The notes below the pieces were generated by a model that was not told the origin of the DNA, did not search any database, and worked only from the letters and a program-made list of their open reading frames with translations. The translations under genes and the position numbers were made by a program. A stretch of DNA of 64,000 bases from Oikopleura dioica (Eukaryota > Animalia > Chordata): contig OU015570.1 of assembly GCA_907165135.1 (NCBI GenBank), forward strand, positions 1,178,001 through 1,242,000. The letters run 5' to 3'. Positions 6,881 to 47,438 of the stretch are shown here, in pieces; positions within the stretch are counted from its first letter, which is position 1; each line of letters opens with the position of its first letter.

Positions 6881-9628
6881 ATGCTTTTGCACAACTTGCT
6901 CTACGCGGTAAAAATAAGTTCACCAATGCTAAACGACAGCATCATTCTCTACGAAACTGAGAAAAATGCTTTTACAATCGAATCAGAGGTAAAAAGAAAC
7001 ATCACGTTCATCTTCGAGGCTCCGGTAATCACAAATGATATGGCTGCAACATGCTCAAAAACAAACACGAATCTAACGGAACTCACTCGCGAATATTCTA
7101 ACCTTCTGATCGAAGACTGGCTTCGAATTGAAATCGAACACTCTTACCACCAGAAAGGCTTTACCGTCAGTAACAACAGAATTATACACCACCAATCTGC
7201 GAAATCTGTGAGTATCCAACGCATCCGAATCAACCAGCCGCACTACAAAGTACTTGAATGGAACGGAACGAACGAACATACATTTCATTTTACGATTTGC
7301 GCAACAAAAGAAAATACGCACGTGATCTTCGTGGAAACGAACGAAAATTTCAACAAGCTTTTGCTACGTGTACCAGCCTCGAGTCACCTGAATGACATAA
7401 TATGGCACGTGAAGGGCGAAATTTATTTTCCGAAAATCACAGTGTCAGGTAACTCGGCTATTATTGAATTTGAGGCACCCTACGCAACTGTGTTCAAACT
7501 ACAAATCGACTTTGTTGGCCCAGTCCAAGAAATAGTGAAGGGCCGTTTTGCGGAAACAGCTTGCTTGCAGTTTGAAATTGATGAGTTTTCAGCAGTCAAT
7601 GAAGATCTGCAACAAGAATTTGCCGTTTACAATCCACCATCGGCAGAAAAGACATCAACTCTCCAGGCAACCGGTCAAGCCAAAAACCAAACTATACTTG
7701 GAATCGCATCTTCGTTTGGACTATCCTTCTCATCGACACTTTCTGAAACCACCACATCAAAATTTATCAAAAATCTATGGGGAAAAATTTACCAGCAGAA
7801 TCGAGCAGATTTCACCATCCCTTCGGAAAAGAACACCTTCAACGATATTTTCGTAACAATCCTGAAGAATGGCCGAAGCAGACACAAGTTTGCAACCCCA
7901 GAAAATTTCTGCAAAAGTGATGTAACAAACCTTCAGTTTGTTGTTGAAACAGCGAGACCAATCATTAATATAAGTATACAGCTTGATGTTAACGAAGGAA
8001 CAGCAATGCTCCTTGGACAAACTCAAAACGACCGAATACACGACTACCTGGATGTGTTCAAAACATCTGCCTTTATCGCTAGAGTTGATGCGCTCGAGTC
8101 TAAAACCGAAAATTTCAAGCACGCAGCTGCCAAATGCTACCCGTCTCTTACGAACTATATAGAAATCTACTGCGATATTAACGACGATTTCTACATACCA
8201 GAGGGTAACAGATATTTTTTTCTTCTAGACGCGAAGATTTCGAATGAAAACTGTCTATCACTCGTGGATCTGTTGAAAACGAAAGGATCGACGCTCTTGA
8301 AAATTGAATACAAATCTCGACCAAAATCAGCGAGAAAACGAAGACAAGTTATCTTTCCGTTGATCCTGTCGTCCGCAACATCTTTCATTACGCACAAAAT
8401 CGACACAAACAACATCAAGGCTGCTAAGGAAGAATTGAACAAATGAATCGACATGACTGATTTGATGTTGAACAGACTCACCAAACTAACGGACAAAGAT
8501 CTAACGAACTTGGAAGTTAACTTTGATCATTTCAAAAACGACATCACTAACTCTGTCCAAAAACTCTGCGAAGAAATTGCAGAAATCTCCGACAGGAGAT
8601 TCATCCTGATGATTGACGCGAAATTTAACTATTTCAAAACAAGTGTAAACAAATTTCTGACAGAGGTTAACTCAAAGGGAAATTTTCTAGTTTCATGCAA
8701 GCTGCAATCAACATTTGTCGTTTAATGAATACAGAAGTAAATGATGAAAACTGCTATGCTTACTTGGCAATGAAAAATGTGATTACGCACGGCATCGAAC
8801 CGACTATTGGCAAAAATGGTCAAACATCTCTGAGAATCATCGTCGAACTCCCGATTGGAAAACTACAACGAGTAGGAAATGTGATAAAGATACTCTCAAC
8901 CGGACTCCCGATTGCTCGACAAGGTGATAAATATTTCTACGAGTTTTCGAAAGTTCCGGAAAAAGTGGCGAAAACGGTAGATTCGCTGATGATTTTGGAC
9001 ACTTGTTCAGAAAGCTTCATCGACGGATCACTGCAACAGTGATGATATTCTACAGTCAGAAAATGACGTAAAATGTGTTCAGTCTCTTTTTGCCAGAAAT
9101 CAACTTCTTTGCCAGAAGAAAATATTTATTTCTCCGAAAAAATGTCTTATCAAAGCCGATAAAGAATTTGTGCTAATTTCAACATTTGCGGATGTCACTA
9201 TGATGACGATGTCAAGTCCAAAGCCAAAACTTATTGCTAACAGAACGACAGTGCTGACCATCCGAAGACCGACGGATGACACCATCTTTAACTGTGATTC
9301 CGAACCGATGATGATTCAAGGAGCATCAACAACAAATCGAGACATCGTTACCGTCAAGCAGTCCCACAAAAGCAACGATTTCGTTTCAAATTGGCTAAGT
9401 TCTTCAGAATACGCAAAAGTTGCTCCCTTTGCTAATACGTCCGTCTTCCACGATAAAAATGCCTACAACGAGCTTAGCTCTTTACTCCTCCACGAAGAAA
9501 TTCCGAGGGATTTCAAGAATTTCTATCAGCTTCTTAAACCACACCAATTTACAATCATTATTGTCTCAGCGCTGGTAACTATTTTCACACTTCTAATTTG
9601 TCTCTGCAGGAAAAATTTCCTGGTTTAA
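6881..9628 (+). pseudogene. env: Env-like glycoprotein with class I fusion-protein features, disrupted
   Basis: Hydrophobic N-terminus, N-X-S/T sites, furin-type RKRR followed by hydrophobic QVIFPLILSSATSF, heptad-like region (8453-8725), C-terminal TM segment FTIIIVSALVTIFTLLICLC. Stop at 8444 and later frameshifts. Confidence 0.85.
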
Positions 9629-9964
9629 TTATTGAGCCTTTTGAAAAGAAAAAACCGCGAACCGGAAGTTACGATGGAGCTCGCTGAACTCCCGCCCACG
9701 ACAAAAACACCTCTTCCACGACCCACACGCAATTTCCACATGTTTAACTTCCGCCCTAGCTCTGGACAGTAAAAAGAAAAAAATGCTTCGCTTTGCCGCT
9801 CTGCAATACAGCCACGTAATGTAAGAAAATGTATATATTCGAAGAAAATGGAATCAGCTAAGAAAAAAGATCAGTAAGAACAGGTGGTTCTTCACTTTCT
9901 TCGTCTGACGACTCAGAATTGGATCCTTCTATTGTTTTGCGTAAGATTGTATAATCCTCTTTAG

Positions 9965-10606
9965 TTACAGTTCCAGTATTTCGCCCTTCGAAAAAGAGCT
10001 CGGAGCTACATCACTTCCTCGATGGGGCTTCATCTTGTACAAAGAGCTAACTTGTCGAAGGTAAACTCCCACATCATGTCGAAACAACTCTTCGCTAACT
10101 GGAATCTTGCTTATCTTCTTCCGAGAAAGAGAATAGATCATCTCGCCTGGCTGGAATGACTTTTTCATAAAGTCACTCAATTTCAACAGAGGAAAATCAA
10201 TCAATTTCCTCTTCAACCGTCTCCAACGTTAGTTCTTCGACTTTTCATTGCCTGGCCCTCCAAAAACGCGTCTTCGAAATGGGGAAAGCCCAGTTAACGA
10301 AAACTTCTGCTCAGCGCGAATTTGATGTTGCAACTTGTCAGAGTCTGGATCATTTTTGAACCAACATTGGTTTAATTTTTTGAAAATGTCTAAGCGCTCG
10401 GCATGAAAAGTGAATTTGTATGATCCATTTAGTACATCGGGAACAATCGTGTGAACAACCACAAAGATTTCCTGGACCAGATCCCCAGCGACAATTGTAG
10501 GAGCAGTTACAGCCATGATACGCCAAATTGGGCTCTGATCTCGATTCCTGATCAGATCGCGATGCCAATTCAGACGTGAGATGAAACGAACATGTTCAGA
10601 ACTCAA
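9965..10606 (-). pseudogene. Antisense ORF of unknown function between env and PPT
   Basis: ORFs 10229-10606 and 9965-10216 share one frame and are separated by a single TAA; acidic tail SESSDEESEE further downstream in another frame. Confidence 0.5.
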
Positions 10607-11069
10607 CTTGGTGCCAGGGAAAGGATCCTAAAAAATCTTCACTCCATTTTACGTGCACTCTAACTTCTTCACTTTACCCATAAACTTTGCTTTGCGATAA
10701 AAATCAAAAATACAAAAAAAAATGTTTTAATTCACCCAAGAAAAATCAAAAACAAAAAAAATCGTAGATAGATCTTAATATTTACTCGTACGTTAAATAA
10801 ATCTGAATTTCCCTTGACTTACTAAAAACACAGAACATGCACTAACAAGATTTTATTCAAAGTAAGATTCTGTCGAATATACACATTTCCCGTGTATATT
10901 AACCAATAAAGAGACATAAATCATAAAATCACTACTCAGCTTACCGTTTCTATTACTGTTCGCCCGTATTTCCCCTTCTTCTTTTCCACGCTTTTTAATT
11001 TACTTTATCGCGCGCTAAATTAAAAATTTGCTGACTGAGCAAATGACAATTAGGCTCCTCTTTTAAAAC

Positions 11070-11079
11070 AGGGGAGGGA
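11070..11079 (+). promoter_or_regulatory. Polypurine tract
   Basis: AGGGGAGGGA directly before the TG of the LTR. Confidence 0.85.
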
Positions 11080-11272
11080 TGTAAGGAGTTGTGAATACCC
11101 TAATTGACGTCAATATCCATTGGCGTGCTCGGTTCCCCCAACTACACTGCGGGAAGCCACTCGAGCCGCAGCTCGCGCAGTTTCAACTTACTGTACTCAG
11201 TCGTCAATTCCCCCGTTTCCGGAATAAACTCAATTACGGCAAACCAGCGTTGTAAAGTGTATCTGCATTACA
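11080..11272 (+). repeat. 3' LTR (193 bp)
   Basis: TGTAA...TTACA termini, AATAAA at ~11223, follows the PPT. Confidence 0.8.
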
Positions 11273-11665
11273 GAGAAGGTGCGTGGTCTTGGAAGACACG
11301 GAAGACACGACCCCCTCATCCAGCTTTTCGCGGATTTATTAATTTTTTCTAACAAAATTCTCGATTTTGTGTCTTGAATTCGAGATTTTACGAAATTTAA
11401 AAGTTGGTTATATCACCCAATAATAATCCTTATCAAATTTTTATGTGCTAGATATTGTTTTTTGATGATTTTTTAATCATTATCAGTAAATAATTCTCAG
11501 TCTCCGCGACTTTGGTAAAATTCCCTATGAAAAATGAGCAAAAATGACGATTTTTAGGTAAATCGGATATTTTTGATCAACAGTGAAAAATTTTCACGAT
11601 AAGCATCCCGTTTTTCATTGTCGCCGCCGTATTTTTAAGGGTTTAATTTTACTTTTAAAAGAATT

Positions 11666-11796
11666 GGGTAAGGCCCATTTGGTGTAATTTCCCATTTGGT
11701 GTAAATTCCATCTGGTGTAAATATCCAATTGGTGAGAATATCAAACTTACACCAAATGGATTTTCACACCAATTGAATATTCACACCAAATGCACC
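11666..11796. repeat. Palindromic cluster of CATTTGGTGT / ACACCAAATG repeats (MITE remnant)
   Basis: Several direct copies followed by inverted copies; no clear TSD. Confidence 0.5.
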
Positions 11797-11920
11797 GAAA
11801 TTTTTGAAAATATTTTTGATAAAAGATGATCGACCCAAGGTTCAAACATTCTTCTGGACCCCCTCAGCACTTTTTTCTCAAAAATTTTTCTTCGAAAATT
11901 ATAAGTTACTAAAAATTTAA

Positions 11921-12157
11921 GGCAAGCCCCTTAAATTCAAAAATCAGAAAATGGGGCTGATACAGCCCGAAAAGCCGGCAAGCTCCTTAAATTAAAAAAT
12001 AAGAATATGGGGCTGAAACGGCCCGAAGGCCCGGCAAGCTCCATGATTTAAAAATAAGAAAATGGGGCTGAAACGGCCCGAAGGGCCGGCAAGCCCCTTA
12101 AATTCATAAATCAGAAAATTGGGCTGAGACGGCCCGAAGGGCCGGCAAGCTCCTTAA
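11921..12157. repeat. Tandem array, ~56-bp unit x ~4.2
   Basis: Units start GGCAAGC at 11921, 11977, 12033, 12088 and 12144; a single related unit sits at ~45797-45842. Confidence 0.85.
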
Positions 12158-12619
12158 CGGTAATGGTATACATCGGCGCGGCGCCGCTCGCTCGATCCGC
12201 GCTCCGCAAGAACCTTTTTCTCACGAGGCCGTAAAATCTGAACGGATCGAGATTTGTCAAAGATTAAAACAGATTCGGAATCCTCAAAGTCTTTTCTATA
12301 AACTGATCGAAAATTAAAACAATTTTCAAAGAGGAACACTGTGAAAAGTGCCAGTTTCCTTCAAATGACATTTTCTCCATAAATTATGGACCATAATTTC
12401 TCATCCAAATTTTATGAAAATTGGACTGTCTTGTAGAGAATCGTCAGCTCTACAATTCCTGTGTTTCAGATTTTTCATTTGGGCTTTCAAAAATAATGTG
12501 CGCTCTTTTGAAAAGAGAGTTATTCTCGCCCGCGAACCATTCTTTATGAAGAATGGTTCTTTGCAAAAGCGACTGAAGGGTGAAGGAAACCGGAGCCCTT
12601 CAGTAACTCAGGGAGGGTG

Positions 12620-12914
12620 AAAAAGTCATATAAATCCGCTCTAGCGCAGGGGAACCGATATTCGCCGCTCACCGCTCAAGATTGTGCGTGCGAACGCACC
12701 AATCGGGCGGGGGCTGGCTTGTTATGAAAATCGGTCCTCGCGCGAGCAGGATTTTTAGCGACTGAGGTGTTTTTCAAATTCCTGTCGCACGACGCAGGAT
12801 CCTCAGGGCGTTCTAGAGAAGCCGTGCGTATTTTGAACTTCACGCTCCCACGAGCGGGCCTGCAGGTCCTGAGTCTTTCCGACCAGGAATTTTCATGATA
12901 AAGGATAGGTCTCA
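12620..12914. repeat. Terminal direct repeat (3' copy in element orientation), 295 bp
   Basis: Identical by eye to 27631-27925 (AAAAAGTCATATAAATCC...GGATAGGTCTCA). Confidence 0.95.
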
Positions 12915-13317
12915 TAGTAATGAACGTGAAACCAATCAATGCAAATATCCATAAACGTTACCTTACCATTACCATAGATCGGTGATTAATGCACTCTTTA
13001 TCTTGATTCCTTAATATGGACGTTTTCATGCCTCTAAACCACTGCAACATGAATTCTCTTTATCTCTTGCATCCATACCCAAGAAACAGATGTTAGTTTT
13101 CCTGTGCAATTTTATTAAAATAAAGAACCTAACAGTCGAAAGTTTGGGCAAAAGGTTATTGTACCCATCTAACTCTCGCGAGTTAGATGGGTCTGGTTTT
13201 CAATCTTCGCAACTGCACCTTCGGACGATCGCTCGATAAGGCTCGTGTTCTCGAGTTTTCCTTAGGTGAACATTACCAATTTTGCACGCAAAACGAGCTT
13301 CTTACCATTGAATAAAT

Positions 13318-13449
13318 TCATCGAAGCCAGGATTTCGGCGTAGCAGGATATGCTGTCGAAGTCGGATGAGGATGCCCACTTTGAGCTCGCGCTCGCGGAG
13401 GCCTCTCCATCTTCATCTTTGTTTCCTTTTTACCAAAACAGTTTCCCAT
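13318..13449 (-). CDS. ORF-G: micro-protein starting MGNCFGKK (43 aa as read; probably longer through a -1 shift and a 45-nt intron at 13305-13261)
   Basis: TTCATTTTAG|tATG GGA AAC TGT TTT GGT AAA AAG; intron candidate GTAAGA...CCTAAG. Too short for the supplied ORF track. Confidence 0.55.
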   Translation of the reverse strand: MGNCFGKKETKMKMERPPRARAQSGHPHPTSTAYPATPKSWLR

Positions 13450-13503
13450 ACTAAAATGAAACGTTCTAATAACTCCGCGATTTATTTTATTCCGAATCGA
13501 GGT

Positions 13504-13785
13504 CTAAAGAGATTGAGGAAGGTTGCACTGAAAGTACGGGATTTTAAAGAGGTCAAAACCCGTTGCTCGGAGGAGGAAGTCCCGGTCGTCTTTCGCCGTC
13601 TGAGCCATGCGGCACTCGAAATCCTCCTCAGCTAATTCAGCAAGAAGGGCGACCTTCGAGCTGAATGTAGCTGCTCGAAAGACCTGCAGGCGGCCGTTAA
13701 TTCCTATCAACAAAGCTTCTCTAAGGATCTTGACGCAGAACTCGGTCTGTACCACCGAGAGGTGACTTTCGGATGAAATCGTCAT
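13504..13785 (-). CDS. ORF-F, 93 aa, unknown
   Basis: Open frame with GATAG|aaATG upstream. Confidence 0.55.
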   Translation of the reverse strand: MTISSESHLSVVQTEFCVKILREALLIGINGRLQVFRAATFSSKVALLAELAEEDFECRMAQTAKDDRDFLLRATGFDLFKIPYFQCNLPQSL

Positions 13786-13899
13786 TTCTATCTTAACGAT
13801 ATAGATTAAAACCCTTCCGATACTATTTTATCCTGATAACTCGAAACTCCTACAGTAAGTCATGATTCGACAGTAATCAAGTTCCACAGGCGGATCCGT

Positions 13900-14186
13900 C
13901 TAGATACCATGACTCTCCGCCTCGCGGCAGGGAATGTCATTGATCTCAAAGCCGATTTTCTCGAAGACGAAGAGGCAATCTTCAAAGGGTACCCGTTTAT
14001 TGCGCTTTCGAAACAAGAGCGTGGAAGATAGGTAGGCCAGAGCGAAAAGCTTCTTCCTCGGGGTCATCTCTTCCGCGCCCCAAAGCGTGTAGTCATCGTT
14101 CTCCATCTCCGCGCTCTTCAAAATCGCAAAGACTCTTTCGAGCTCATCGGGGAAAGTCTACGCGTAGTACCGGGAATCGTGAACAT
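13900..14186 (-). CDS. ORF-E, ~95 aa, unknown (one -1 shift near 14155)
   Basis: TGTTTAG|taATG at 14186; MFTIPGTTRR joins FPDELERVFAILKSAEM if one T is restored. Confidence 0.5.
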
Positions 14187-14246
14187 TACTAAACAGTTAT
14201 GCAATCAATTCCTTATAAATAACAGCTTGATAGCAAGAAGAGACAC

Positions 14247-15555
14247 TTATAACACATAATCGGAGTTTTGTGATATTTTTCTTTTCTTATTCTCCTTGAA
14301 TTCTCGCCATGACCTCGCTCCTTTGAATTTATCCGTCATCGAGGGGGCATTCGGCGTGGAAGAGGACTCGCGAGAGTCCCCTCTCTCGTTGAAGCACTTA
14401 CATGTAAAACCTTCGGTCTGCGTACCCTTTGATGCCACCTTTGGTTCTAGCTTCAAGGTGGTTTGAACCAATTTCTTTCCGGCTCCCTGTTTTTCTGGTT
14501 CAACAATGACGACATCGGCATCAAACGACGGGTTTTTGTCTCTCTTGATCAGAGCGTTCGCGAGGTTTGGAGGACGAGGGTCGCCCCTTCGTCTTCCTGG
14601 CGCTTTCTCTCAACCATTGCCGCGATGCGATAGTGAGCTCCATACTCTGAGTCCAACAAGAAATAGCTTCTGTAGACCTCGAGCATTTCTGCCGACTTCC
14701 ACCGACATACCGAAATTATGAGACTATCGTCGACTCCGGCTTCACAAGCAGCGATTACGTAGCTGCAACGCATACTGTGCCCGCTCGGAGCGTTTTCCCA
14801 ATTCAGCAACGCCGCTGTCTTTCTATAATAATAGTTGATCGTAGCTGTGACCAGACCTCTCTTAAGTTCTGGGGCAGCAAACAGCTTCCCTGACTCCCTT
14901 CCGTCGATCAGTTTTTCAATCCATTGTTTGATGTTGATGGGAAAATCGGGCAGAATTGGAAGTGAGAGGCTTTCTCGTTTCCTTTTGCTGGCGTTGGTCT
15001 TGCTGGTTCGTAGAGGCATTATAATATATAACGCCTCCTTTTTCTGCTTGAAGATTAGATCTTCAATTCTCAGCGAAAGGATTTCAGCAGTCCTTCCGGC
15101 TGTGTGGAAAGCAATTACGCTCACTATGGCGACCATCTTTTCGATATTAGTCCCGTTATAGAGTCGCCTCCAAAACGGGAGTAACTCGTTTCTACGGAAG
15201 ATGTTTGCTTGGTGAGGCTCATACAAAGACTCGGAGCTTTGAGCTCTCATCTTGCGGTTAATCCACGTTTTAAGGGTTTGTCTCGCCGGGTGAAGCAAAG
15301 GTGTTCCTTCTCTGTCCATCACCGCATTCTGGATGAAACTTCGCAGTTTCTCCCAGCCTTGCGGGATGGAGGGGTTCTTAAGTTTGAGTGAGTCGAGGAA
15401 CTTTTCCATTACTTCGGCTGTGACTACCGACTTCGATTGCCTACGGAATTTTTCCATGTAGAAGATGCCCAGGACTTGCACGCTTCTGGCTTTAAGTCGT
15501 AACGCGCGACTATTGCACCCGATTCACTTGTTTCATTAAATTTCCGATGTCCCAT
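14247..15555 (-). CDS. Tyrosine recombinase (~436 aa after restoring two single bases)
   Basis: Catalytic R in HTAGRTAEIL, K in SKTN, HSMR, Y in WKSAEMLEVY. ATG at 15555 and a C-terminal extension to 14247 join the core ORF 14549-15481 by -1 shifts in A5 and G4 runs. Confidence 0.9.
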
Positions 15556-15765
15556 CTATTAAAGAGTAAATTTTAAAGGAAGTTTTATAGTCCTAACTTT
15601 TAATTTCGAAATAGATCCTAAGCACTAAAATAAATAAGAGGTAGATAAATGAAAGATTAACAGAAACAGCGAACAGATGAATAGCACTATAGCACTCCCC
15701 TAAGGGGTCGAAGAGCGAGCAAAGAAGGAGAGGTCTGCGAAGACCCTCCTTCTTTAATCCGTTCT

Positions 15766-15986
15766 TTAAGATTTCGGCTGGATGTTCTGGCGTCCGGTTC
15801 CGCCTCCTCGGCCACGGCCGCCTCGACCACCCCTCGGCCCCGGAAGTTGTCTTGTGAGTAACCTTGGTTATGAGGGTGGCCATAGCCGCTGTTGTAGCCC
15901 TCCGAATATTGGGCATTGTACTGGTTGTCGTACGAATGCCATTTATTCTGGCCGTGGTTTCCGCCACCAGAGTTGCCGTGGAAGCG
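15766..15986 (-). CDS. G/Y/N/Q-rich plus RGG coding segment (possible terminal exon of ORF-D)
   Basis: RFHGNSGGGNHGQNKWHSYDNQYNAQYSEGYNSGYGHPHNQGYSQDNFRGRG, then GGRGGRGRGGG after a -1 shift in a G run. No clean ATG or acceptor resolved. Confidence 0.55.
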
Positions 15987-16113
15987 TTAAACCATAAGAT
16001 CAAAAAACTACTTAGTTTTAAACATTTTTTATATTTTGTAGCGAATGATTCATAGTTCTAAGGTAATCTACTTCATTTACGTCCAAATCCTAATCTAAAT
16101 ATAAACACATAAA

Positions 16114-17258
16114 TCAATCACCTCCTCTGCCTCCGCGACCTCTCGGCTTGTTCTTTTGGCCACCACGGCGAGTTTGCTTGTTCTCAGCCTTCGCCTTGTC
16201 CCGACTTTCCTTCTCAGCCAAAGCATGCGCCCGCTTCAAGTCGTCGGCGTACTCGATCTTTTCCTCCGCGGTCATTGTGGCGTGATCCCGCTTGAGTTTC
16301 CTCAAATACTGGGTATCCGCCTGAGAATCGAGCTGGTTCTGCATGAATCGTTGTTGTCGATTCTTGTCAGGGTCCATGGACGAGTGCAAGATCTTGTTAT
16401 CTGCATCATTGTAGGCCATTCTGGTGATGCAGTCGCACAAGTCAGACATGGTCGCCTGAGTGCAAGCTTTGCGACAACTGAGAAGGAAATCGAAACGAGA
16501 CATTGTCTTGTTTTCCAGCAAATTCTGGAGGCAGAGGTTAAGGTTCGGGAAGCTGTGGTGGTCGTGGCCAATAGCTTGAGTATAGCGTGATAAGATATCT
16601 TTAGCTTTCGCGAAAGTGAGGGAAGCGATTCCCTCCCTTGTCGCTACTGCTTTACGCCACTCAATCCCAACCTTGCGGGCATCTTCAGCCTTGGGCTGTT
16701 CAAGATCGTCCGAGCCCAGGCAAATCTTGTAAAACGCGCCGTCATCCGTTTTGTAGGCGAAGTCGGTTCGTCGTTCCTCGACGACGTATTTCTTCAAAGC
16801 GGCGACGCTTTTAGAAATAACCTCGTCGAGGGCGAGCTGTTCCGCTCTTATTTTGTTGGCCTTCATCAGGGCGTTGTCCAAGGACTCCTGAACCGTTTTA
16901 GCGTCCATGGCCCAGGCTTCTTTATCTCCTTCATGGAGATCCAGGCCTCGTTCTACGCGACCCTTGCAGTATTCTCTCGCATCGACAATGTCCTGCCATT
17001 TGAGTGTCTCTTCGGCGGCTTGTTTCGCGAGGCCGAGAAGCCGAGCTCGGCGGTTCTTATCCGCTGCAATGGCCTCATATTTCAAGGCGAACACATCGTC
17101 CTTAAGGCGCTCCTCCATGATGAAGTCATAGTCGCGCTTGTTGATCTTGACGGTGCCAGCTGTCATTTCCATTCTTCTAAACGCAGCGAGTCTTTGCTGG
17201 TTAGAAGCGGAGTTTGGGTTTTGAAACCCTCCATGTTTAGAAAGGCCAAATCGTTCAT
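16114..17258 (-). CDS. ORF-D, ~381 aa, helical/coiled-coil with basic RG-rich tail (possible nucleocapsid-like protein)
   Basis: 352-aa ORF 16114-17172 extends to the ATG at 17258 with one -1 shift; TTCTTCAG acceptor 9 nt upstream; ends RRGGQKNKPRGRGGRGGD. Confidence 0.75.
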
Positions 17259-17368
17259 GATTTCAGTCTGAAGAAATGAAATAAATTTCCCAATCTCAAC
17301 TTGAGACTACAAAATATGCTTCAAGATACAAAAATAGAACATCAAGGGAAAGGGGCCTTCGCAGGCCT

Positions 17369-19751
17369 CTACTCCCCTTTGTGTACAATCAAAGACAAAT
17401 GTGCTTTATCTGGGTGTTTCCAGTAGCCGAGATCGTGGTCTAACTCATCTGTCGGAAAAAGGATTGGCATCTCTTTCCACTCAACCCATTGAAGATTGTC
17501 GAGATGGAACACTTCACTTCTCAAAGGGGACAAAATTTCATATTCAATGACGGCCAGCACCCACGTTGCCTTCTTTGCTCGTTCCAACAACAATTGAAAC
17601 GTAGGAATCAACACCGGTTGAGGCGGGAAGAGCCAGGCCGTTTCGTTCTCCAAAGACTTGATTGTCAGAAAATTCGTATGAATCGAGCCCTGCTCGTCGT
17701 GTAGTGACATGAATCTTTCTGTTTTTCTGTTGTGAACTGTTGCGAAACAGTCCACAGTGAATTTCAAACCCAAAGATTCCTCAATCCTCCTGAACCCATC
17801 GTGCGAGACAATCGCTTGTCTCGCATCAACGGTTCTAGAGGGTTCATCGGCTTCTTGTTCTAGCGTAGAAACCCATGTTACGTCCAAGCTGATGTTGTTA
17901 TCGTGGGCCGCTTCATTGATTCTTTTGATGATCCTTGTCAAAGGCAGATTTGAGCTTCCGAACTTGAAGGTTTCAGTGACAGCTCTGTTGTCACAATAGA
18001 AAATAACCCTTCTATTCTGTAAACGGTGACCGTATTTTTCCAATGCTGCTAAGATTCCCACGCCTCCTTCAAGTGGATCGCCGACCGAGCTATGGCATCT
18101 CCTTCGGACCAAGTAATGGTTTCGTTTATGCCGAGATCGTTTATTACGATACCTCCAGCGAAGCTGGAGGCGTCGGTTGAAATCACTGTTTTCGCCGCCA
18201 CGACGCCCGGCTCAAGCCACGATCTAGTTTTCGTGATGTATTTGGATTTAAGCCAAACGAGGAGTTCCTCGCGGAGCTCCTCGGTGACTCTGACTTCCTC
18301 ATCTCTCGCGTTTTTGATGGCATCCGTACAAACTCTGATGTAGAGTCGCATATTCGATATGACGAGGCACATCGAGGCCATTTTTCCCCTCAAGCGTTCG
18401 AGAACTTTCACGTGGACACGTTTTTCTTTCTTACTGCAGCGGCTTCCTGTTTGAAGCGTTCCCATTTCGCTCTCGGGATGGCGATTGTGCAATCGATCGT
18501 ATTTATCGTGAAGCCGAGGAACTCCAAGACCTGCAAAGGTCTCGGAGTACTCTTCTTCCGGTTGATGAACGTGCCGAGTAAGGTAAAGAGGAGAAGGGCT
18601 GCGACAAGTTCCCTTGGAGTTTTGGATCCATTAAGGAAGTTTCGGGCTTGAGCTGGAGAAGAGGGGCGCACGATTAACAGCCTATCGTCCAAGTACAAAA
18701 AGCACCTGATTCCTTGTTTTCTTAAGTAATTAACTGGGGTGCCATTGCATAGTTGATAATGGCCAGGGATGGCCGGAAGGCCGAAAGCCGCGCCTCTGTA
18801 GCGAAAGAGGTTTCCGCCTAGCTGGCAAAAAGCGAGGTTGCGGGAGAAAGGGTCGAGTGTGAGGTGGTGGAAGCCACTTTTATCGTCCCACTTTGAAAGA
18901 AGGTCGCCCTTCTTCAAAATTTTTAGGACTTGGCCGGCTGAATCAAGGTGACACGGTTGCGTGTATCTTTCGAGGACCTTGAGCGGGCCACCATTATAGC
19001 ATGTCCGCCACTGCTCTTCTCCTTGCTTCGGCACCACTACCCAATTCGCCATCATGAGGATCGAATGTTTTGCTTCCGGCGGTCTGTATTCGAGCGCTGC
19101 CGACTCCATCCACTTTTTAATTTGATTCGCGATGACTCCGATGTGTTTATTTGTGCCCTTCGAGTTTTTTATCACCAAAGGCTTACCAAAATTATCACCG
19201 TCTGCGAAGACGGGATAATGGATTTGCCTTGTATAATGGAACTTTCCGACTCGGTAACGATCTTCGCCTTTCATCCTTGATTTCATCTTAAGCTCGTTGT
19301 CTGGGTTAGTCTTGTAGTACGAAGCCACCTTGAAGTTTTTATACCTCTTCGCCTTTTTAACTGGCACGTGCATGAGGTTTTGAAACAATGAAATTCCTTG
19401 ATGAATATCATGGTACGCCTCCGGGCGGAGTTTCTCTGGCAGATAATTAATAAAGATCAGCCACAAATCCACATTGTCCGCAAAGGTTCCACATTTGAAG
19501 TCTTTTTCTGAGCGAAATCGTACCAAGTTCCAGTCGGGCTCGACGTCGCCGTCGATGACCCTTTGGAACGTCTGTAAAGCTTCAACTGAATACTGTTTCC
19601 ATTGCGCGTCCGACCAGTAAGGCGCCGACTTATCATCTTCCTCTTGATAAAGTGTGAGGGAGCGCACTTCTTGTCGTTTATCTGGGAGGCCTTCGCCGTT
19701 CTTTAGGCCTCCGAGCCACGCTTTTGCCTTTTCGTTATCCAGCCTAAACAC
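17369..19751 (-). CDS. pol: Pol: RT - RNase H - Dam-like methyltransferase domain, no in-frame ATG at start
   Basis: RT: KWDDKSGFHH, AFGLPAIP, YLDD, FLGF. RH: STDAS, HLKEA, YCDN, ADEPSR. MT: VDCFAT...N, WLFPP. Three ORFs join by -1 shifts at ~18420 (A5) and ~18058 (G3). Confidence 0.92.
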
Positions 19752-19883
19752 ATGGAGCTGAGGAGAACGTTATTCCTAACAGGTTTAAATTATGAGAGGC
19801 AGACCCTAACGCGCAAAGAAACAGCTGTGAATTCAAGTGGCCCAGGTTAGGCGGGTCCTGCGAAGGACCCGCGTAACTAGAAC

Positions 19884-21289
19884 TTAAAACATCATGTCTC
19901 CAAATGTGGCGAGAGAAACCTCGGCCTCCATTTGGGCCTTTCGGTTCATCTCTCTTCGTCTTTTGACGTGTTGCATGTAACCTCCCTCAAAGCCATCGTC
20001 GTCCGTCGGTGTTGTAATGACGGGCCGATGTTGGACAACTTGTCTTGGTGGTTCGGGCTTTGGTTGAGGACTAAAGAGTATTTATAGGGGTTACTACTAC
20101 AATAACAATAATGGTTCGTATGCTAAGATTTTATCAAATGAAGAGCCTTCAACAGAAAACTCAGACGGCTCCCGCAACCTGCTAAGTTATGGTTTTCAGT
20201 TTTTACCTTTTGCTCTCGGCCCAGTTATCCAGGCCCTTCTCGATCGCCTGGTCGATCTTCGCAAAACCGAGCGCGACGTAAGTCCGCGAGTTCATTTCAT
20301 CGGCGTCGGGAAAAAGACCCTCACCAGCTCCATCGCCTTTTGCTTTGTGATTGCGTTTTGGCGGTCTTCTGCTTTTGAGGAACTCGTCGAGCCTCAAACT
20401 CCCTGTGACTTCTCTCCGAAGAGGACCGCGAGGTCCTTTCGGATACCAGTCACAAGGTTCGTCAAGCGGGATGGCGAGAGCGACTCGGGATCTAGCAGCC
20501 ACATGCGTAGATCCTTCATCACCGTGACGTAAGTTGCCGTGGCGATGGCAGCTAAACCGTCCTTCAGCGAGAGGGCCAGGGCTGACTTGATGGGGTTTTC
20601 TCCCTTGATCTCAAAAAGAATTTGAGAAAGCCACTTGAACTCGGCGACTAATTTCTCGTCGTCGCCCTTAGCATCGATTAATAGAACGGCCAACTCCGCC
20701 TCGTTGTAGATGGCCTGTTTGGGCTTAAGGTTGACGTTGCACATTCGATAGAGGGCCGCCATCTCTTTATTAATCGTAATGGCCAAGTTCTCGCTAAACA
20801 AAGCTTGAACTTTCAGCGCCTGACCAAAGGTGATGTTGCCATCTCTTCGGAAACGATCCGTTTCGGACTCAATTTCTCGAAGGAAAACGACGAATTCATC
20901 TGGGCAAATTCTTTCGCCAATCGTGCAAGCAACCCTGCTTTTACGTTGGAGGCTAGGGATTTGTTTTTCCAGCTTTTCAAGTCTTTCGTTGACAGCTGTG
21001 TCAATCGTCGCCGGTTGAACCTCGCGGTTCAACTCGGCTTGATCTCTACTTGCTCGGCTTCGATATTATCGAGCCTAGCCACAACTTCTTGAAAAGCTTC
21101 CGATTCCAAGACTGCTACAGTAACGTCCTTCACTTTCGTGGTCTTTGGCTTGGCCGGGGCCTTCGTTTTCACCTCCAAGGCTTGGACCTTCGGCTTCACC
21201 TCCGTCGCCGGAGTAGTTGCCGAAGTGGAAGCCGCTAGAACTTCTTCAATCGATGGAATTTCTTTCAAATCGGTTTTCTTTGGAGGCAT
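19884..21289 (-). CDS. ORF-C, Gag-like by position; exons 21289-20207 and 20070-19884
   Basis: TTTAG|aATG; three ORFs joined by two -1 shifts; donor AG|GTAAAA at 20206 joins acceptor CTTTAG at 20071 in frame, adding 61 aa. Confidence 0.65.
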
Positions 21290-21761
21290 TCTAAATTCAG
21301 CAATTTGTAACCTTTTAAATTTAAGAAGTTATATTTTCCAGTCACATAATGAATACTTTTTATCTTTGAATTTGAACTTAAGCAACAAGGCTCTTTTCAC
21401 CCTTCGACCCTCGACAACTCAACACCGGCCGGCCCAACAGCAAAAGGCTCCGGAAATAGAGTTTCTAGTACTTGAAGGTTCGTGCCCAGTAAACTGGGGC
21501 CTCTCGCGAAGCGACTTATCGAACAGTCGAGTATAGAAACTCCTATTTGACCGGCCACAATCGACCTGAGGAGGGCAGAAGGGTGAAAATTTTTAAAGAA
21601 ACAAATCACAAATAGACAAAGGAATGACTTTAACAACACAGTGAAATTTCAAATAGTAGAGAAGTCACAATGACTAAATTTTGAACTAAAAATTTTGAAC
21701 TAAAAAACTGACAGAGGTAGTACATGATCTTGGTTTAGGGTAGGCATTTTCTTATTTTCCA

Positions 21762-22121
21762 TTATTCTCCGTGATCTTCATCATCGGATTGCCGTGGATA
21801 AAAATCTTTGGCGAAGCAATGAAAGACTGTTGGCAAGCCTAGCTCTTCTCGTTTTCTTGTTTCTTTGAAGAGCTGGTTCCTGACCGCCGAGCCGTTTATA
21901 TTTCCAAACCTTTGCTCAATGTCCGCTAGAAACTGCGAAGTTTCAGCGGGCATTTCAATGAGCAAGTCGAACAGGATAGTTCCTTGCTCGTCGGCCTTTG
22001 TCGGCATGAAAGTTTTACCGGAGATAATTTGTGCAGCTTTTGTAATAGCCGCCTTTTGGCTTATTGACAGCGCAGAGGTGTTTATATCGCATCTGTCAAC
22101 CAGGTCCGCTTCAGTTATCAT
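21762..22121 (-). CDS. ORF-B, 119 aa, unknown
   Basis: Its ATG overlaps the upstream TGA (ATGA at 22121-22118). Confidence 0.6.
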   Translation of the reverse strand: MITEADLVDRCDINTSALSISQKAAITKAAQIISGKTFMPTKADEQGTILFDLLIEMPAETSQFLADIEQRFGNINGSAVRNQLFKETRKREELGLPTVFHCFAKDFYPRQSDDEDHGE

Positions 22122-25100
22122 GTTTCTCCGGAAGCGTTTTCGCGTTTCTCTTCTGGACCTGTTAAGCCCTTTTTTCTTTTGAGCGTCAGTTCTTTCTTTG
22201 ACGACTCCTTGGCCCCCTTCGAACTCGACCCGACGGTTTTGCACCGCGAGCCTATTCGAGGACTCGTTTTGGATTTTTGATCCTGTCTCCTTTTTACCGG
22301 CGGAAGGCCGCCTGCGAAGGCTGACCTTGCCGGTGAGTCTTCGGTTTCGGAGTCGGATGTATCGGGCGAATCGACGGGGTATGACACCGTGGAATCGGAA
22401 AATTCGTCGAAGCAGGCAACCCTTTCTGACAGTCTTCGAGCCATCCAAGGCTGGCCCCTGTTGTCTTTCAAGACCAGCGAAGGCTGAGATCCAAGATTAA
22501 CTCTTTCCAGCTCCGCCCAGATTTCGTGACTAGCGAAAGAGTCAACGACCTCCAACAAGGACTTGTCCAGATGTTGAAGTGACAAGTTCCTTAGAATTTC
22601 CAAATAGTGCCTCGAGTGTCTGCTCGTGATCGCTCTTGGCTGCGTTTCCGCTGAAGAAGAAGCCCCGTCCCCGAAAACAATTCGCATTCTCATCGGGAAC
22701 AAGGGTCTCTCCCCATCAGAAGAGTCTGAGTCTGACGGGATTTCCGAAGGATATTTCGTATTTCCCTTCTTTTGTCGAAAGGTTTCTTCTGTTGTTTAAA
22801 CGGGGGCTTTCGCTCGACGAGCTGGTGCCTTCTTGGGTTTGTTTCGAGTCCCGTTTCTGAGGGACGGGAACAACTGGTCCTTTAGCGGCTCTTCTCCTCG
22901 CTGCCCTTTCTTGACGAGTCTTGACCTCCGCTTCGAGGGCCAGTCTGTCAGGGTTAGCGTCCATGGTTCTTTCGCTGTTTAAAAACCAGATGGGGCCTCG
23001 GGGAGAGACGCTCGCGCGTCTCTTCCCTCGTCCGTTGTCCTCGTCGGCGACTGAGCTCTCGAAGAAGCCCTTGAAGTGGATGTCGATGACGCCAAGGATG
23101 GAATAGGCGTTGGGTGAAAAACGTCGTACTCAGCAATTCTTTCTCGTCCGTGCAGCAAAAACTCGTTTTTGACGTGAAAGTAAGGGTTCATTTCGGGAAC
23201 AACTGGGTGTTCAGATCTCACTGGTTGGAGTTTGTGACGATCTTCGGGGTTTTTAGCGAAAGATCGAGTACAGAAGATGTCATTCCAGTACTCGAAAGAC
23301 ATTCGGTACTTCTCTTTGTCGGCTCTCGTCGGAAAAGTTTTAACCCAAATTTCCCACCAGGCTTTCGCAAGCTCTGGTGTGATATTTGGGTCTTTTCTTA
23401 AGTTTCGGAGGATCGACGAATCAATGTCCGAGAACCATATGAAATCGTGTTCAACCGCTCTGATCCTTGCCGCAATCTGACCCAATCTTCTTTCCAAAGA
23501 AGTAGTCAAAACCGTTATGACAAAGTACTCTTCCTTCATTGGTGCCCAGGTTGTTTTGGGTTTTGCAGCATAGCTAAAATCGAGGTTCTCGACCTCTACG
23601 AGGTGGAGTCCCTCGCGGGCCCTCCACTCGATTAGAAACGCCGCGAAATCGGCTGCTCTTTCCTCCCTGTCAGCCTCGGTACTTCTTGATCTCGCCGCGG
23701 GGTTCCAGGACGCTGGGCCCCAAAGATTTTCTGGTAAGAGGCCCTTGAAGCTCTCGTCATGGCAAGCAGCTCTGAAGATTGTGCTCCAAGCATACGTGCC
23801 AGGTCTCGGTGGAGAAGGGAACTGATCATCCTCTTTAATTTGAGGATGAAGAAACGTGGTCATTTTGTTGCCGACCCACTTCTCGTAGTAGCCCAAGACC
23901 TTATCCTTCATTTTTTGTGTTAAAATAGCCACTTTTGACGGTGGCGAAGAGGCTTCAGGAGACTTTGCCAGGTGTTTCTTAGCAAAGTCCACGTATGCTG
24001 GACTTACAAGAATGGCAATCTTCAAAGTGGGAAAGTCGCGCTCGATTTCTCGAATCAGGGTAAACTCGGGGAACTGGTATTGTTTTCCTTGCGGCGGGAG
24101 ATGCATCTTGGCATTGAAACGCTTCTTGATATCCGCCAAATCGAAGTTAGGAGGACGGCACAAAGTGTTCTTCACGTATTCCTTGGAGATCCCGTTTCTA
24201 GCTGTGGTGAAATGACATCTATCATTTATGTTAACCACCGTAAACGGATCTTCTTCCCAAACTCTCGAGTAGCCTTCTGTTTTATGCAGGATGAAGAAAA
24301 GACAAGGAGTTGTCACTTGAGAGAACCTCGCGGTTCTCCAAGGCAACTCCCCGTCGAGCTTATCGTAGTTGTCGTTGATGTAACGAAGAGCGTTGAGCGT
24401 CTTGTCACTTTCAGCGACCATTCGGCCTTCCCACGTAAACTTTCCACCCGTTGCGAATTTCAAAGACAAGAGCTTCGCGTGGTAGATCGGCATAACACCT
24501 TCTCCCGTCTTTTTCCTGAAGGAGTTGACGATCTCAAGCATGAGTCGGGCGCGCAGCTTTGGAGTCGCCGTGACCCGTGGTCGAGGCGCTGGGAGTCTTT
24601 CGTTGGCCATTTCAACACCTTGTCCGTCGATGCGCGGGACTAGGGTTGTCAACGGTGAAAACGATTCGCGCATTGCTGCTTCCGAGTCCGCTCTCAAATG
24701 AAAGAAACATGCTGGTGCTACTCCGCATGATTTCTCGTTGCATCCGATAAACGCACAGGCATCCGGATCTTTTTCGAGCTTGGTGACATCCAACAGCGGG
24801 CCTGAGACTTTTTCGTTTTTCACCAATGATCGTTTAGGCTCGACATCTTTGTGCCATTTGTAATGGCTCATGTCTGGATCGTCAGGGGAGACTAAATCAG
24901 TGCCGAACCAATTCATATATCGGTCAACCATTTCGATCATTGAAACCCGCGAGGATTTAATGATGAATTGGGATAAGTTGTGGCCGATGAGGGTTTGCTT
25001 TTTCGTTTTTAATGCCTTGGGGAGAACGAAGACTTTGACCTGAGTCCTCTCTTCTATCTCAATCTCATGAGCTTGGGCTTTGACGACTTTTTCGATGAAT

Positions 25101-26404
25101 TTGTCCCAAGCCTTGACGACCGGCACCAGATTTCCTCTCCAATTCTTCTCGATTTCTGCTTCGAGGTTCCGCAGACTTTTCAGGGTCTTTTCCTCCTCAT
25201 GTCCAGATTTTGCTATTACTCTCGCGAGTTTTAGCAAATATCTGACTTGATCGGGGTTCGTGACCTTTTCCGGGAGAAGCATATACTGGATCGGCTCTGT
25301 GGCGTAAATCAGCCAGAACGAAAGGTCTCCGATGTCGTTCAGCATTTTTCGAGTGTTTGGGAGGATCTTGAGATCATCGTATCTCGGGATATAGGGAGGG
25401 TTAAACCAGTCCATTAAATTGGCACAAGCAAAGGCCGTTGAGGGTGTAGTTCCTTCGTTGAATTGCTTTGCCCACTCGTAAGCCCATTGTACACCAATCC
25501 GGATGATGTGGCTTAAACTTATCCAGAAAGCTTCGAATCCCCAGCTGAGATCGAAAGCTTCAGCAAAAACCGAAATTTCTGCTCTGACTTGCTCTGCTCC
25601 TTTGTCGAAGTCAACAGGGTCGTTCGTGCGGCTCGCGAGAGCCACAGCGAACTCATTGATGTTATCGAATCCCCCGAAGCCAACTCCGATCTTTCGCCAG
25701 AGAAGGGCCGCCGTTTCTCTGTAGAAGTCGAGTTCTACCTTTTGAGTCGGGAATTTTTCTTTAACAGTATTGGCTATATCATTTAGCTCTCGCGAGCTAA
25801 TGACAGTCAATATGTTGATGGCGACTGATCCGGCTGGTTGAGAGGAAGGTTGAAAGGAGATCCATTCTTTCACTGCTTTTTCCACGGTATCTAGACTAGC
25901 AAACTCCGAAACGACTTGAGGGGCGACGGATCTTTTTCCGCTCCTTTTGATGTTAAATAAAGGGGCCGTGGCGTTCGCTACCATCATTTTTGTTGGGTCC
26001 TTCTTGGCATCTTCTCCCTGAAGGGCCAGCAGTTGTGCAATCTTGAGGTCCCAGACCTTTTCCGTTTCAGGCTTATCGGGGACGAAAAAGAGATCTCTCG
26101 CGAGATCTTCTTTTTCTCCCAGCTTTTCCGTCGAGTAAACAAGTCCATCAGAATGAGCAGGTAATGACCACAGTGGCTTCCTGTTAAGAGCGAGTGCCGG
26201 AGCTGCAAAGGACAACCAGCTAATCGCATGCGACGCCAGTTCGACTGAGCTAAAACACAACGTCATCAAGGGAATGAGAATTTGTTTGAAATGGGCCATG
26301 TTGTTTTCTATCGGAAATTCCCCCCTTTGAAGGATTATCGCGCCGGTTATGGGAACAGCGGCGGGTGGTTCGAACTCTTTCCCTTTTTCTAAAGTGTGAA
26401 TCAT
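22118..26404 (-). CDS. ORF-A, unknown giant protein (1141 aa uninterrupted, ~1430 aa if three -1 shifts are corrected)
   Basis: 3.4-kb open frame 22979-26404. A protein-like -1 frame from ~23115 (YSILGVIDIHFKGFFE) runs into ORF 22716-22964, then into 22118-22702. Confidence 0.8.
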
Positions 26405-26507
26405 TTTCAGGCGATATAAGCTCGCGCTTATTCGCCTGAACCTTCATTCGGGCCAACCGAAAAAGAAAAAAGTTTTCTAAATTAAGCCTCTTTTCTTTAC
26501 CCCAACA

Positions 26508-26927
26508 ATGTCTTTTTCCGACCATCGTCCCGAGACCGAGAGAGAACGTCGTGACCGAGAGACTAATGAGCTCAAGGAGTTCTTGAAACTCAGCCACTGG
26601 CTCCTAGCCGAGGTAAATCAGGTCTTAAAGCTGAAGGACTAGTTTTAAATTTATATATTCTATCAAGAAAAAATCTCAAATCAATCTTGATAGGGTCCCC
26701 GCCTCCGCCGAGGGGAGATCACCGAGGAAAGCCTTCGCCCTTTGGCTCATCAAGTCAATCATGCTATGTGGGATGCCGAGAAGACCATCAACTGCCGATA
26801 CTGGCGCGATGTCTACAACACCCGTCCCAAGACCGACTCTCTACGACAGCTTCTGGATGAGGTCCTGATCATGAAAGCCCGCATCAAAAAACCCATTCGC
26901 ACCGTTCTCGATAGCGCGTGCATGTAA
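26508..26927 (+). CDS. Small two-exon gene antisense to the element (~112 aa)
   Basis: ATG at 26508, donor GAG|GTAAAT at 26613, acceptor TTGATAG at 26693, in-frame exon 2 to TAA at 26927, AATAAA ~50 nt downstream. Confidence 0.6.
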
Positions 26928-27073
26928 ATCTACTGTATCTTTATAATTTCGGACTAAGTTCAAATTTCCCGCTGCAATAAAGCGTGTAATCGGCCATTTA
27001 TCAATCAACTTCTATGTGGGGGAAAACAGCTTTCGCAAGCTGCTATCCCCTTCTAGAACACTTGTTTTGTCAT

Positions 27074-27555
27074 TTAGTAAAGAGGTAAAAAGACTCGGAG
27101 ACTGAGCCTTCGGATCGATTCGATTGAAAAGGGCGAATTTTCTCTAGAACCGTTGTTTTGGTTAAATCTAAAGCCGTTCCGAACTGACCGATGTATCCTT
27201 CGGGAGGGAATAAGGGGTCTAAAACACCCTTTTTTCGAGCAGAAAAACCCAAAAAGAGTCATAAAGCTCACCTGATCGATGTCGAGACTAGGCAGAGCGC
27301 AATTCTTCCATCTGAGGCATCCAGACGAAGCGGTGTCCAGTTGTTTTGGGCGAATAACCACGAGGAACCGGCAAATTCGCGTTTTTGAGGGTTGAACGCC
27401 GGGCCGTCGCCGCTAAGCTGCGAAGCAAAGTCGACGACGTAAAAGGACGTCAGCGGGTTTATTTGCCATCTATTGATGCAAACCGCCCCCCATAATTCGG
27501 ACTCTTCCCTGAGCCAGTCGCACGTGTCACTTCGTTCCGGTATAAGCTCTCTCAT
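27074..27555 (-). CDS. ORF-0, two-exon gene (~142 aa), unknown
   Basis: Exon 27555-27272, 53-nt intron GTGAG...TTTTAG (27271-27219), exon 27218-27074; total 429 nt, in frame. Confidence 0.6.
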
Positions 27556-27630
27556 CGGAAAAATTGCATACAGTCTAAAAAACTGAAGTAAAATATCCGC
27601 AACATCTAAAATAAGATAAAGAGTGCAGGA

Positions 27631-27925
27631 AAAAAGTCATATAAATCCGCTCTAGCGCAGGGGAACCGATATTCGCCGCTCACCGCTCAAGATTGTGCGT
27701 GCGAACGCACCAATCGGGCGGGGGCTGGCTTGTTATGAAAATCGGTCCTCGCGCGAGCAGGATTTTTAGCGACTGAGGTGTTTTTCAAATTCCTGTCGCA
27801 CGACGCAGGATCCTCAGGGCGTTCTAGAGAAGCCGTGCGTATTTTGAACTTCACGCTCCCACGAGCGGGCCTGCAGGTCCTGAGTCTTTCCGACCAGGAA
27901 TTTTCATGATAAAGGATAGGTCTCA
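27631..27925. repeat. Terminal direct repeat (5' copy in element orientation), 295 bp
   Basis: Identical by eye to 12620-12914. Confidence 0.95.
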
Positions 27926-28374
27926 GTATTTATGAAATAAGTAAATTAGTTTAAGTAATAAATAATAAGCTATTTCTGAAAATTAGTTAATTAAAGAGAA
28001 AAAGAGCTCTTTCAATGCTGAGCTAGGCTAGCGGACAAACAGCGCCGCTACGCGGCCCCCGCGCTGTTACGTAATCGCCGCGCCACTGATTTTTGTTTTT
28101 CTCTCGAGACAGTTTTTTGCATTTTTCTCGGTTTTTTCGTCTTACGCGGTTGAATTTTTTTGCAGAAATGGATTTTTCACATGAAAATACAGTACTTTCC
28201 ACTTGAAAAAATTTATTTTTGTATCCTATAGAGGAGTTACAGAAAAGTGCCTAAAATCCAGGTACCCACTTACGAAAATCCTTTTTTTGGGTCCTATATG
28301 AATCAGAATTCTCCGCTCTACAAGATACCCTTGGTTTTCCCTGGCGACGTCGCAATCGCGATTTAATTTTTTGT

Positions 28375-28951: not shown

Positions 28952-29085
28952 AGAGGGCCGTGGATCAGCTCAGATTGTTGCGGACCTGGATGAGCTGGTA
29001 GAGAAGTTTGAAGGCAGCGGACAAGCCAATAGGAAGGACACTGTTCACATAAATTGTGCTTCTAACTACCTTTGGGCTGCCGCCC

Positions 29086-47340: not shown

Positions 47341-47438
47341 TCACATTCAGCTCGTATGATTTTTCTTATAAAATGTTTCTGCTTAACTCTATATTATTAT
47401 TGTGGTTGTCAATGAATCATTCACTGAAATAAAATTCA

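Follow-up and report, generated by a model that had tools for sequence, protein, structure and literature searches.

Conserved splice acceptors ahead of the genes of an Oikopleura dioica tyrosine-recombinase retrotransposon and their possible use in operon-like trans-splicing

The window analysed here is a stretch of 64,000 nucleotides of Oikopleura dioica DNA (GenBank assembly GCA_907165135.1, contig OU015570.1, positions 1,178,001 to 1,242,000 of the forward strand), and all coordinates refer to it unless a relative is named. Its minus strand carries a 15.3-kb unit (12620-27925) enclosed by two fully identical 295-nt terminal direct repeats (27631-27925 and 12620-12914) and, as its protein domains indicate, this unit is a tyrosine-recombinase (YR) retrotransposon of the DIRS order. 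The eight or nine genes of the element follow one another in the same orientation, and a conserved 3' splice acceptor precedes most of them. Judged by their retention in diverged relatives, the acceptors are very likely under selection, and we are highly confident that they function as 3' splice sites. Our favoured proposal, to which we give an even chance, is that the host spliced leader (SL) is trans-spliced onto each unpaired acceptor and resolves the genes of the element in the manner of a host operon.

Conserved AGs at the gene starts

The original prediction named six AG-before-ATG motifs, all of which are present on the minus strand: GAATTTAG/aATG (ATG at 21289), TTCTTCAG/9 nt ATG (17258), TTTAATAG/ATG (15555), CTGTTTAG/taATG (14186), TCGTTAAG/ATAG/aaATG (13785) and CATTTTAG/tATG (13449). 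The final G of the AG lies at 21291, 17268, 15556, 14189, 13788 and 13451, respectively, and for the fifth site a better TTAAG ends at 13792. Measured against shuffles of each 40-nt upstream stretch, a YAG (Y, pyrimidine) ending within 4 nt of the ATG is found at 5/6 sites where 0.86 would be expected (p 3e-4), and within 12 nt at 6/6 where 1.96 would be expected (p 1e-3), these six ATGs having been chosen by the prediction. Four of them (21289, 17258, 15555 and 14186) open frames of only 86, 31, 43 and 22 codons in the window copy before breaking into the long open reading frames (ORFs), and the start positions were therefore checked by homology. The ORF4 start at 17258 is supported, as its homologues extend beyond the long frame by 25-32 N-terminal residues, in agreement with the 31-codon frame, and the start of the gag-like gene at 21289 is a rough fit. 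The YR start at 15555 is not pinned by homology, the YR of the relative L011 being ~16 residues shorter, and homologues were not found for the ORFs at 14186, 13785 and 13449.

The claim that nearly every ORF begins behind an acceptor can be extended to two further genes and has to be restricted at two other positions. The reverse transcriptase (RT) gene has CTCCTCAG 4 nt upstream of its ATG at 19753, and homologous proteins (P0002, P0003 and P0032-P0034), as well as the RTs of the relatives L006 and L008, begin at the position of this ATG. The first gene of the element starts directly behind an acceptor as well (TATTTTAG/ATG, 27603-27613, ATG at 27605). Neither site figured in the original prediction, nor did the frameshifted state of the copy or the apparent ordinary cis introns described below. 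By contrast, ATGs 26404 and 22964 lack a nearby acceptor. The same pattern had been attributed to a host-like RING gene, and the ATG of this single host-like gene (37564) does have TTTACTCAG 3 nt upstream.

Loss of the AGs among copies had been named as a finding that would speak against the prediction; in relatives they are retained. When the RT alignment was used to scan metagenome contigs, 365 pattern matches were obtained, which reduce to 12 loci on 12 contigs. Mechanical extraction of ORFs of at least 100 codons from these loci yields 35, a set that includes ORFs at contig edges, internal methionines after frame breaks and near-identical duplicates from L005 and L006. From it we curated 25 starts: 15 located behind an intergenic spacer, two set to the homologous start (L006 3583 and L008 229) and eight starts of the window, ATG 27605 being excluded. 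Of these, 17/25 have a YAG within 4 nt (3.6 expected, p 1e-9) and 20/25 within 12 nt (8.3 expected); among 787 other ATGs the corresponding frequencies are 14% and 33%. The relatives alone give 11/17 within 4 nt (2.5 expected, p 3e-6), or 10/17 (p 3e-5) when the first in-frame ATG of the L006 RT is used. The RT starts, window included, are those best fixed by homology, and all nine have a YAG within 12 nt (2.8 expected, p 2e-5). Identity among these nine RTs is only 24-64%, with a median of 36%, and when the 60 nt preceding their acceptors are compared, just 2/36 pairs align at p<0.05. The AGs have thus persisted although the DNA around them has been replaced, and passive carry-over does not account for them.

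It could be argued that the AGs do not serve separate mRNAs at all and reflect chance, start-codon context or in-frame fusion acceptors of the Gag-Pol kind, since a third of all ATGs have a YAG within 12 nt, the starts were selected by curation, and an automatic gene model (P0001) fuses gag and RT via 19758. The strength of the signal in the relatives alone, the T-rich pentamer in both CAG and TAG forms, and the homologous RT proteins that begin at the ATG behind the AG make this very improbable. The distances from AG to ATG at the RT starts (4, 0, 9, 0, 11, 0, 1, 2 and 1 nt) moreover cover all three phases, and a consensus donor is found in the last 90 nt of the upstream ORF in 0/8 cases in a scan for GT donors; 12% of host introns have GA donors (PMC4122922). 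The distances in all phases and the lack of a donor in the upstream ORFs together indicate that the 5' exon is non-coding and that a Gag-Pol fusion is unlikely.

What is joined to the acceptors

In O. dioica 39% of genes are trans-spliced with a 40-nt leader at an unpaired AG that is usually followed by an A (PMC6389100, PMC6883708). The base after the AG is A at 16/24 sites of the element and its relatives, partly owing to ATG context. If the element uses this system, a single long RNA polymerase II transcript, possibly joined by another from a second promoter in the long spacer ahead of the gag-like gene, would be cut at each acceptor and the 40-nt leader attached there, so that each ORF would acquire a capped leader with its ATG 0-12 nt past the junction. 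The upstream piece would be polyadenylated in the spacer or, alternatively, discarded, which would give rise to a nested 3'-coterminal set. Some transcripts would have to escape all splicing to serve as the genome, since likely cis introns persist in DNA copies, an indication that the replicating RNA is unspliced. Such intron-like GT-AG stretches are seen in the gag-like gene (20206-20071), the ORF4 tail and the 5' gene, with similar ones in L004 and L011, and ORF4 homologues carry the arginine- and glycine-rich (RGG) tail that lies beyond the window intron.

Also in favour of SL trans-splicing, the spacers between the genes measure 54-181 nt from stop to ATG in 18/22 cases, which places them inside the 500-bp operon definition of PMC11067885 and mostly beyond the 60-bp one, and 18/22 are free of a GTRAG or GTAAR donor. 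Stop-start reinitiation at a TAG adjoining the ATG was considered and rejected, as the upstream ORFs end at least 54 nt earlier and CAG forms are common.

Several points weigh against trans-splicing by the SL. SL junctions were not found at the acceptors, none of which was reached by the RNA reads. In the mechanical set of 35 ORFs only 11/35 have a YAG within 4 nt, the curation of the 25 starts was done after their contexts had been seen and was not blind, and the relatives lie on metagenome contigs that have no assigned host. Poly(A) signals are scarce, with AATAAA in 3/22 spacers and ATTAAA in 3/22. The operon spacer cut-off in the host is 60 nt, measured differently, and the spacers of the element are longer (PMC7986045). 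For the Tor elements of O. dioica, Tor3a env is described as cis-spliced from the long terminal repeat (LTR) and Tor3b/4b env as expressed from internal promoters, and the available text of that account makes no mention of trans-splicing (PMC4402516). Finally, the terminal repeat of the element itself contains a consensus donor, 77 nt ahead of the first acceptor and within a part devoid of ATGs; a shuffled repeat has at least one such site with a chance of ~0.1.

This donor (G/GTGAGC, 27678-27684, minus strand, GT from 27683) would be the source of a common cis-spliced leader, with a promoter in the 5' repeat and a short ATG-free exon joined to each acceptor in turn. It is the sole G/GTRAG of the repeat and one of 7 on the whole 15.3-kb sense strand, and TCTAGA, a host testis promoter motif found at a median of 44 nt from the start site (PMC6389100), lies 145 nt upstream of it (27828). 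Tor3a env supplies a precedent in the same species, and the distances in all phases and the scarce poly(A) signals fit a cis leader equally well. Splicing of this kind would, however, require 6-14-kb introns that bypass several strong acceptors, the ATG-less acceptors inside genes included, whereas introns of this genome are tiny and only 2.4% exceed 1 kb (PMC4122922). TCTAGA, too, occurs 7 times in the element. The donor would also be explained if its partner were the first acceptor. A common cis leader is a serious rival that we judge less likely than not. We rank SL trans-splicing above it mainly because a donor 77 nt from the first acceptor should pair there, leaving the other acceptors unpaired in a trans-splicing host, where they would be SL targets; their presumed unpaired status depends on the donor at 27683. 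A mix of SL and cis splicing is possible by analogy with the Cer1 element of Caenorhabditis elegans. Of the original proposal that the AGs split one RNA by means of the SL or of a common cis leader, the use of the AGs as 3' splice sites is well supported by their retention in diverged relatives; as to the donor, the sequence offers arguments for either source.

Each gene might instead have its own promoter in the upstream ORF or spacer, with the AG ending a short outron or an intron of the 5' untranslated region and with no polycistronic precursor. The promoters of Tor3b/4b env lie within pol (PMC4402516), 693 internal operon promoters have been mapped in the host (PMC6389100), and the spacer ahead of gag is long (315-472 nt) in 3/3 elements. 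Most spacers have just 54-181 nt to offer, though, eight separate promoters in coding DNA would be costly, and TCTAGA lies within 60 nt of only 1/25 starts, and we consider this arrangement improbable. TCTAGA promoters at the acceptors themselves were rejected on the same count.

Sequence reads bear on transcription of the family and not on the junctions. Matching to 12300-28200 at 88% gave 14 partial reads of low complexity around 15800, including one at about 18400-18670, and left the acceptors uncovered. Matching to L005 at 80% gave 12 RNA reads of one run and 38 contigs that are possibly DNA, nearly all less than 90% alike; among the pieces and loose ends listed, none reached an acceptor or showed a leader. 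The 12 reads, which are oligo-dT reads, match L005 at <90% in gag, RT and RNase H, which suggests that some member of the family is transcribed.

Taken further, SL trans-splicing would free all genes of the element, RT and recombinase included, from one transcript and make it a mobile eukaryotic operon, its translation under the mTOR-linked control of the leader and escape from trans-splicing acting as a switch between protein and genome; we put this broader scheme at somewhat below an even chance. DIRS-order ORFs usually overlap, and the literature covered does not state by what means the RT and recombinase located downstream are translated. Should the element use the SL, a parasite would have adopted the host operon machinery for a whole multi-gene genome, and trans-splicing would offer retroelements a route to take up extra genes, in an element ~3x the usual size. 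It would also pose the problem of how at least eight strong acceptors are left unused in the genomic RNA. Were a cis leader used instead, the result would still be an unusual splicing plan, like that of a complex virus, in a genome of tiny introns. The predicted junctions are given at single-base resolution in a host with published maps from SL-based cap analysis of gene expression (SL-CAGE), and can be tested without new animals.

The element and its genes

The YR assignment comes from a PF00589 match (E 1.6e-11) above the Pfam cut-off, and a target-site duplication was not found, the flanks of the two repeats differing, both in keeping with the DIRS order; the true ends of the element are uncertain. 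The RT match to PF00078 (E 3.9e-6, 27.2 bits) is slightly below the cut-off of 29.6, which the relatives L003 and P0033 exceed, and the RNase H part of the RT gene is seen solely through colinearity with the PF17917-bearing P0005. Behind RNase H lies a Dam-like methyltransferase whose PF05869 matches (E 0.027 in the window, 0.014 in L003 and 0.0098 in P0033) are all below cut-off. A conserved ORF precedes RT in L001 and L006 as it does in the window, Pfam support for gag being absent. The ends consist of direct repeats only: the inverted terminal repeats and internal complementary region of DIRS1-like elements were not found. A blastn of 10001-30000 against the window found no B repeat pair, and only A1/A2 of the split-repeat scheme A1..B1-A2-B2 is present. 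By its direct repeats and weak methyltransferase the element appears closest to the PAT-like group, the RT comparison covering relatives only. Relatives were not found in the viral and prokaryote collections.

One database protein matches the RT at 100% identity; according to its source label it is a gene model from the Y-specific region of O. dioica, and the same record contains a second YR that is 79% identical to that of the window. Changes of frame break nearly every gene of the window copy, though its terminal repeats are identical. Assembly indels or decay could explain the frameshifts, and assembly error or repeat homogenisation the pairing of identical repeats with broken genes. The window copy may be dead or mis-assembled, and the mechanism is claimed for the family and not for this copy. 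Among the relatives, L005 ORF4 is 83% identical to a member of an O. dioica ORF4 cluster and the RTs of L010 and L011 match an O. dioica gene model at 56-66% identity; in a quick tree, in which the L005 row is in the wrong frame, the loci fall in several deep lineages.

From 5' to 3' on the minus strand, the element begins with the direct repeat at 27631-27925, which is ATG-free between 27906 and 27641. The large accessory gene that follows (22979-27605), of unassigned function, is broken in its 5' part, where donor-like sites (27271 and 26500) point to likely cis introns, and continues as an open 1141-aa frame at 26404-22979. The ATG at 26404 has no YAG within 30 nt, and the 1141-aa ORF looks like a later exon of the gene that starts behind TATTTTAG at 27605. 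Its protein has no Pfam match and no usable Atlas match. L006 likewise has a large gene of unknown function ahead of gag (27-2102), and similarity between the two was not detected. Overlapping ORF pieces in three frames (21762-22964) are likely one broken gene; Pfam returned nothing for the two pieces scanned (22795-22121 and 22496-21765).

The spacer ahead of the gag-like gene (21290-21761, 472 nt) contains an imperfect inverted repeat (21394-21440 and 21543-21589). It is also long in L001 (457 nt, 435-891) and L006 (315 nt, 2103-2417), that is, 3-5x longer than the other spacers in 3/3 elements, and is a candidate internal promoter or packaging signal. The gag-like ORF (19884-21297) is spread over several frames with a likely GT-AG cis intron. 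It is homologous to the ORFs that precede RT in L001 (E 2e-10) and L006 (E 1e-13), has no Pfam match above noise and is named gag by position alone. The RT-RNase H-methyltransferase gene (CTCCTCAG/ctccATG, 17369-19765) is colinear with homologues of 800 aa and has frame breaks near 19750, 18420 and 18060. The near-identical contigs L005 (2004-2006) and L006 (4460-4462) share an in-frame TAA within RT.

ORF4 (15687-17275) comprises a coiled coil, a helical domain and an RGG/N-rich tail, the last past a likely intron (16121-15986) that, in the window copy, does not finish with a canonical AG. It has 18 other homologous proteins at E<=0.001, and the named members of the 10 clusters examined are all from O. 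dioica, including CBY11485, CBY21789, CBY25173 and CBY15475, and are annotated there as ordinary unknown genes. The predicted structure has a pLDDT (predicted local distance difference test) of 85 and no fold match in PDB or BFVD, and Atlas matches, under 0.9, are leads only. ORF4 is conserved in the family between RT and YR (window 15687-17258, L005 4067-4646, L011 1781-3084), has no Pfam match and may be the RNA-packaging protein. L003 has an extra ORF between RT and ORF4 (3176-3607) that is homologous to the N-terminal 135 aa of the O. dioica gene model P0031 and starts 2 nt behind GTTTAG; the gene content of the family thus varies while the acceptor rule holds.

The YR gene (14247-15563) is broken near both ends, and P0007 (79%) aligns through 15409-14250. 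Three small ORFs follow: a broken one (13840-14196), an intact one of 93 aa with no Pfam match above noise (13504-13799) and one of 43 aa (13318-13458). The last begins MGNCFGK, which we take to resemble a dual-acylation (myristoylation/palmitoylation) membrane anchor. The element closes with its 3' repeat at 12620-12914.

Related systems and the remainder of the window

As described in the cited texts, PAT-like and DIRS1-like elements share with the present element a YR, an RT-RNase H gene and the absence of a target duplication, as well as, in putative form here, a gag ORF and a Dam-like methyltransferase with weak matches, and PAT also shares the direct terminal repeats (PMC3266345, PMC9210276, PMC6681497). 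They differ in having three, often overlapping, ORFs where the element has eight or nine non-overlapping genes, and of these only the element has an ORF4 between RT and YR, likely cis introns and an acceptor before each start. The element in turn lacks the inverted terminal repeats and internal complementary region, and its B repeat was not found. At 15.3 kb it is also longer than the DIRS-like families of Xenopus (4-6 kb). DIRS elements have been recorded in O. dioica, also on the Y chromosome (PMC3266345, PMC5240408).

The SL operons of O. dioica (PMC6389100, PMC7986045, PMC11067885) likewise have tandem genes on one strand, short AT-rich spacers and a T-rich AG by the ATG, presumed unpaired in the element, whereas the element is mobile and must also keep an unprocessed genomic RNA, and its SL use is a proposal. 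The Tor LTR elements (PMC4402516) share the host and a downstream gene with its own mRNA; they are Gypsy-like rather than YR elements, and have only one such gene, env, cis-spliced from the LTR or expressed from an internal promoter. The RNA of Cer1 (PMC3315495) takes the host SL1, and an 8-kb gag-pol RNA skips all splice sites, but Cer1 receives the leader at a single site, located 5' on an RNA that is cis-spliced, and does not resolve successive genes in operon style. VIPER and TATE of kinetoplastids (PMC6681497) are YR retroelements whose ORFs are separate and whose hosts process every mRNA by trans-splicing; unlike the element they have three ORFs and no methyltransferase, and the text on trans-splicing concerns the host and not processing between ORFs. 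By analogy, the single-site SL1 on Cer1 and the YR elements of kinetoplastids are precedents for a retroelement in a trans-splicing setting. A literature search over titles and abstract openings found neither operon-style processing of a retrotransposon nor the structure of an Oikopleura YR element; Volff 2004, Denoeud 2010, Danks 2015 and Repbase may hold descriptions.

Elsewhere in the window, a broken Gypsy/Tor-like LTR element on the plus strand (305-9630) encodes a zinc knuckle, RNase H and an env-like 521-aa ORF and is interrupted by two insertions (~2525-3294 and 3940-4680). An acceptor adjoins neither the ATG of its gag (305) nor that of the env-like ORF (6881). The host-like RING gene noted above (37564-38153) is an E3 ligase gene in two frames, with an N-terminal zinc ribbon (weak PF14369) and a C-terminal RING domain (PF13639, E 1.7e-10). 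Arrays of a 57-nt tandem repeat occupy 44533-47350 and partly overlap ORFs at 46134-47415.

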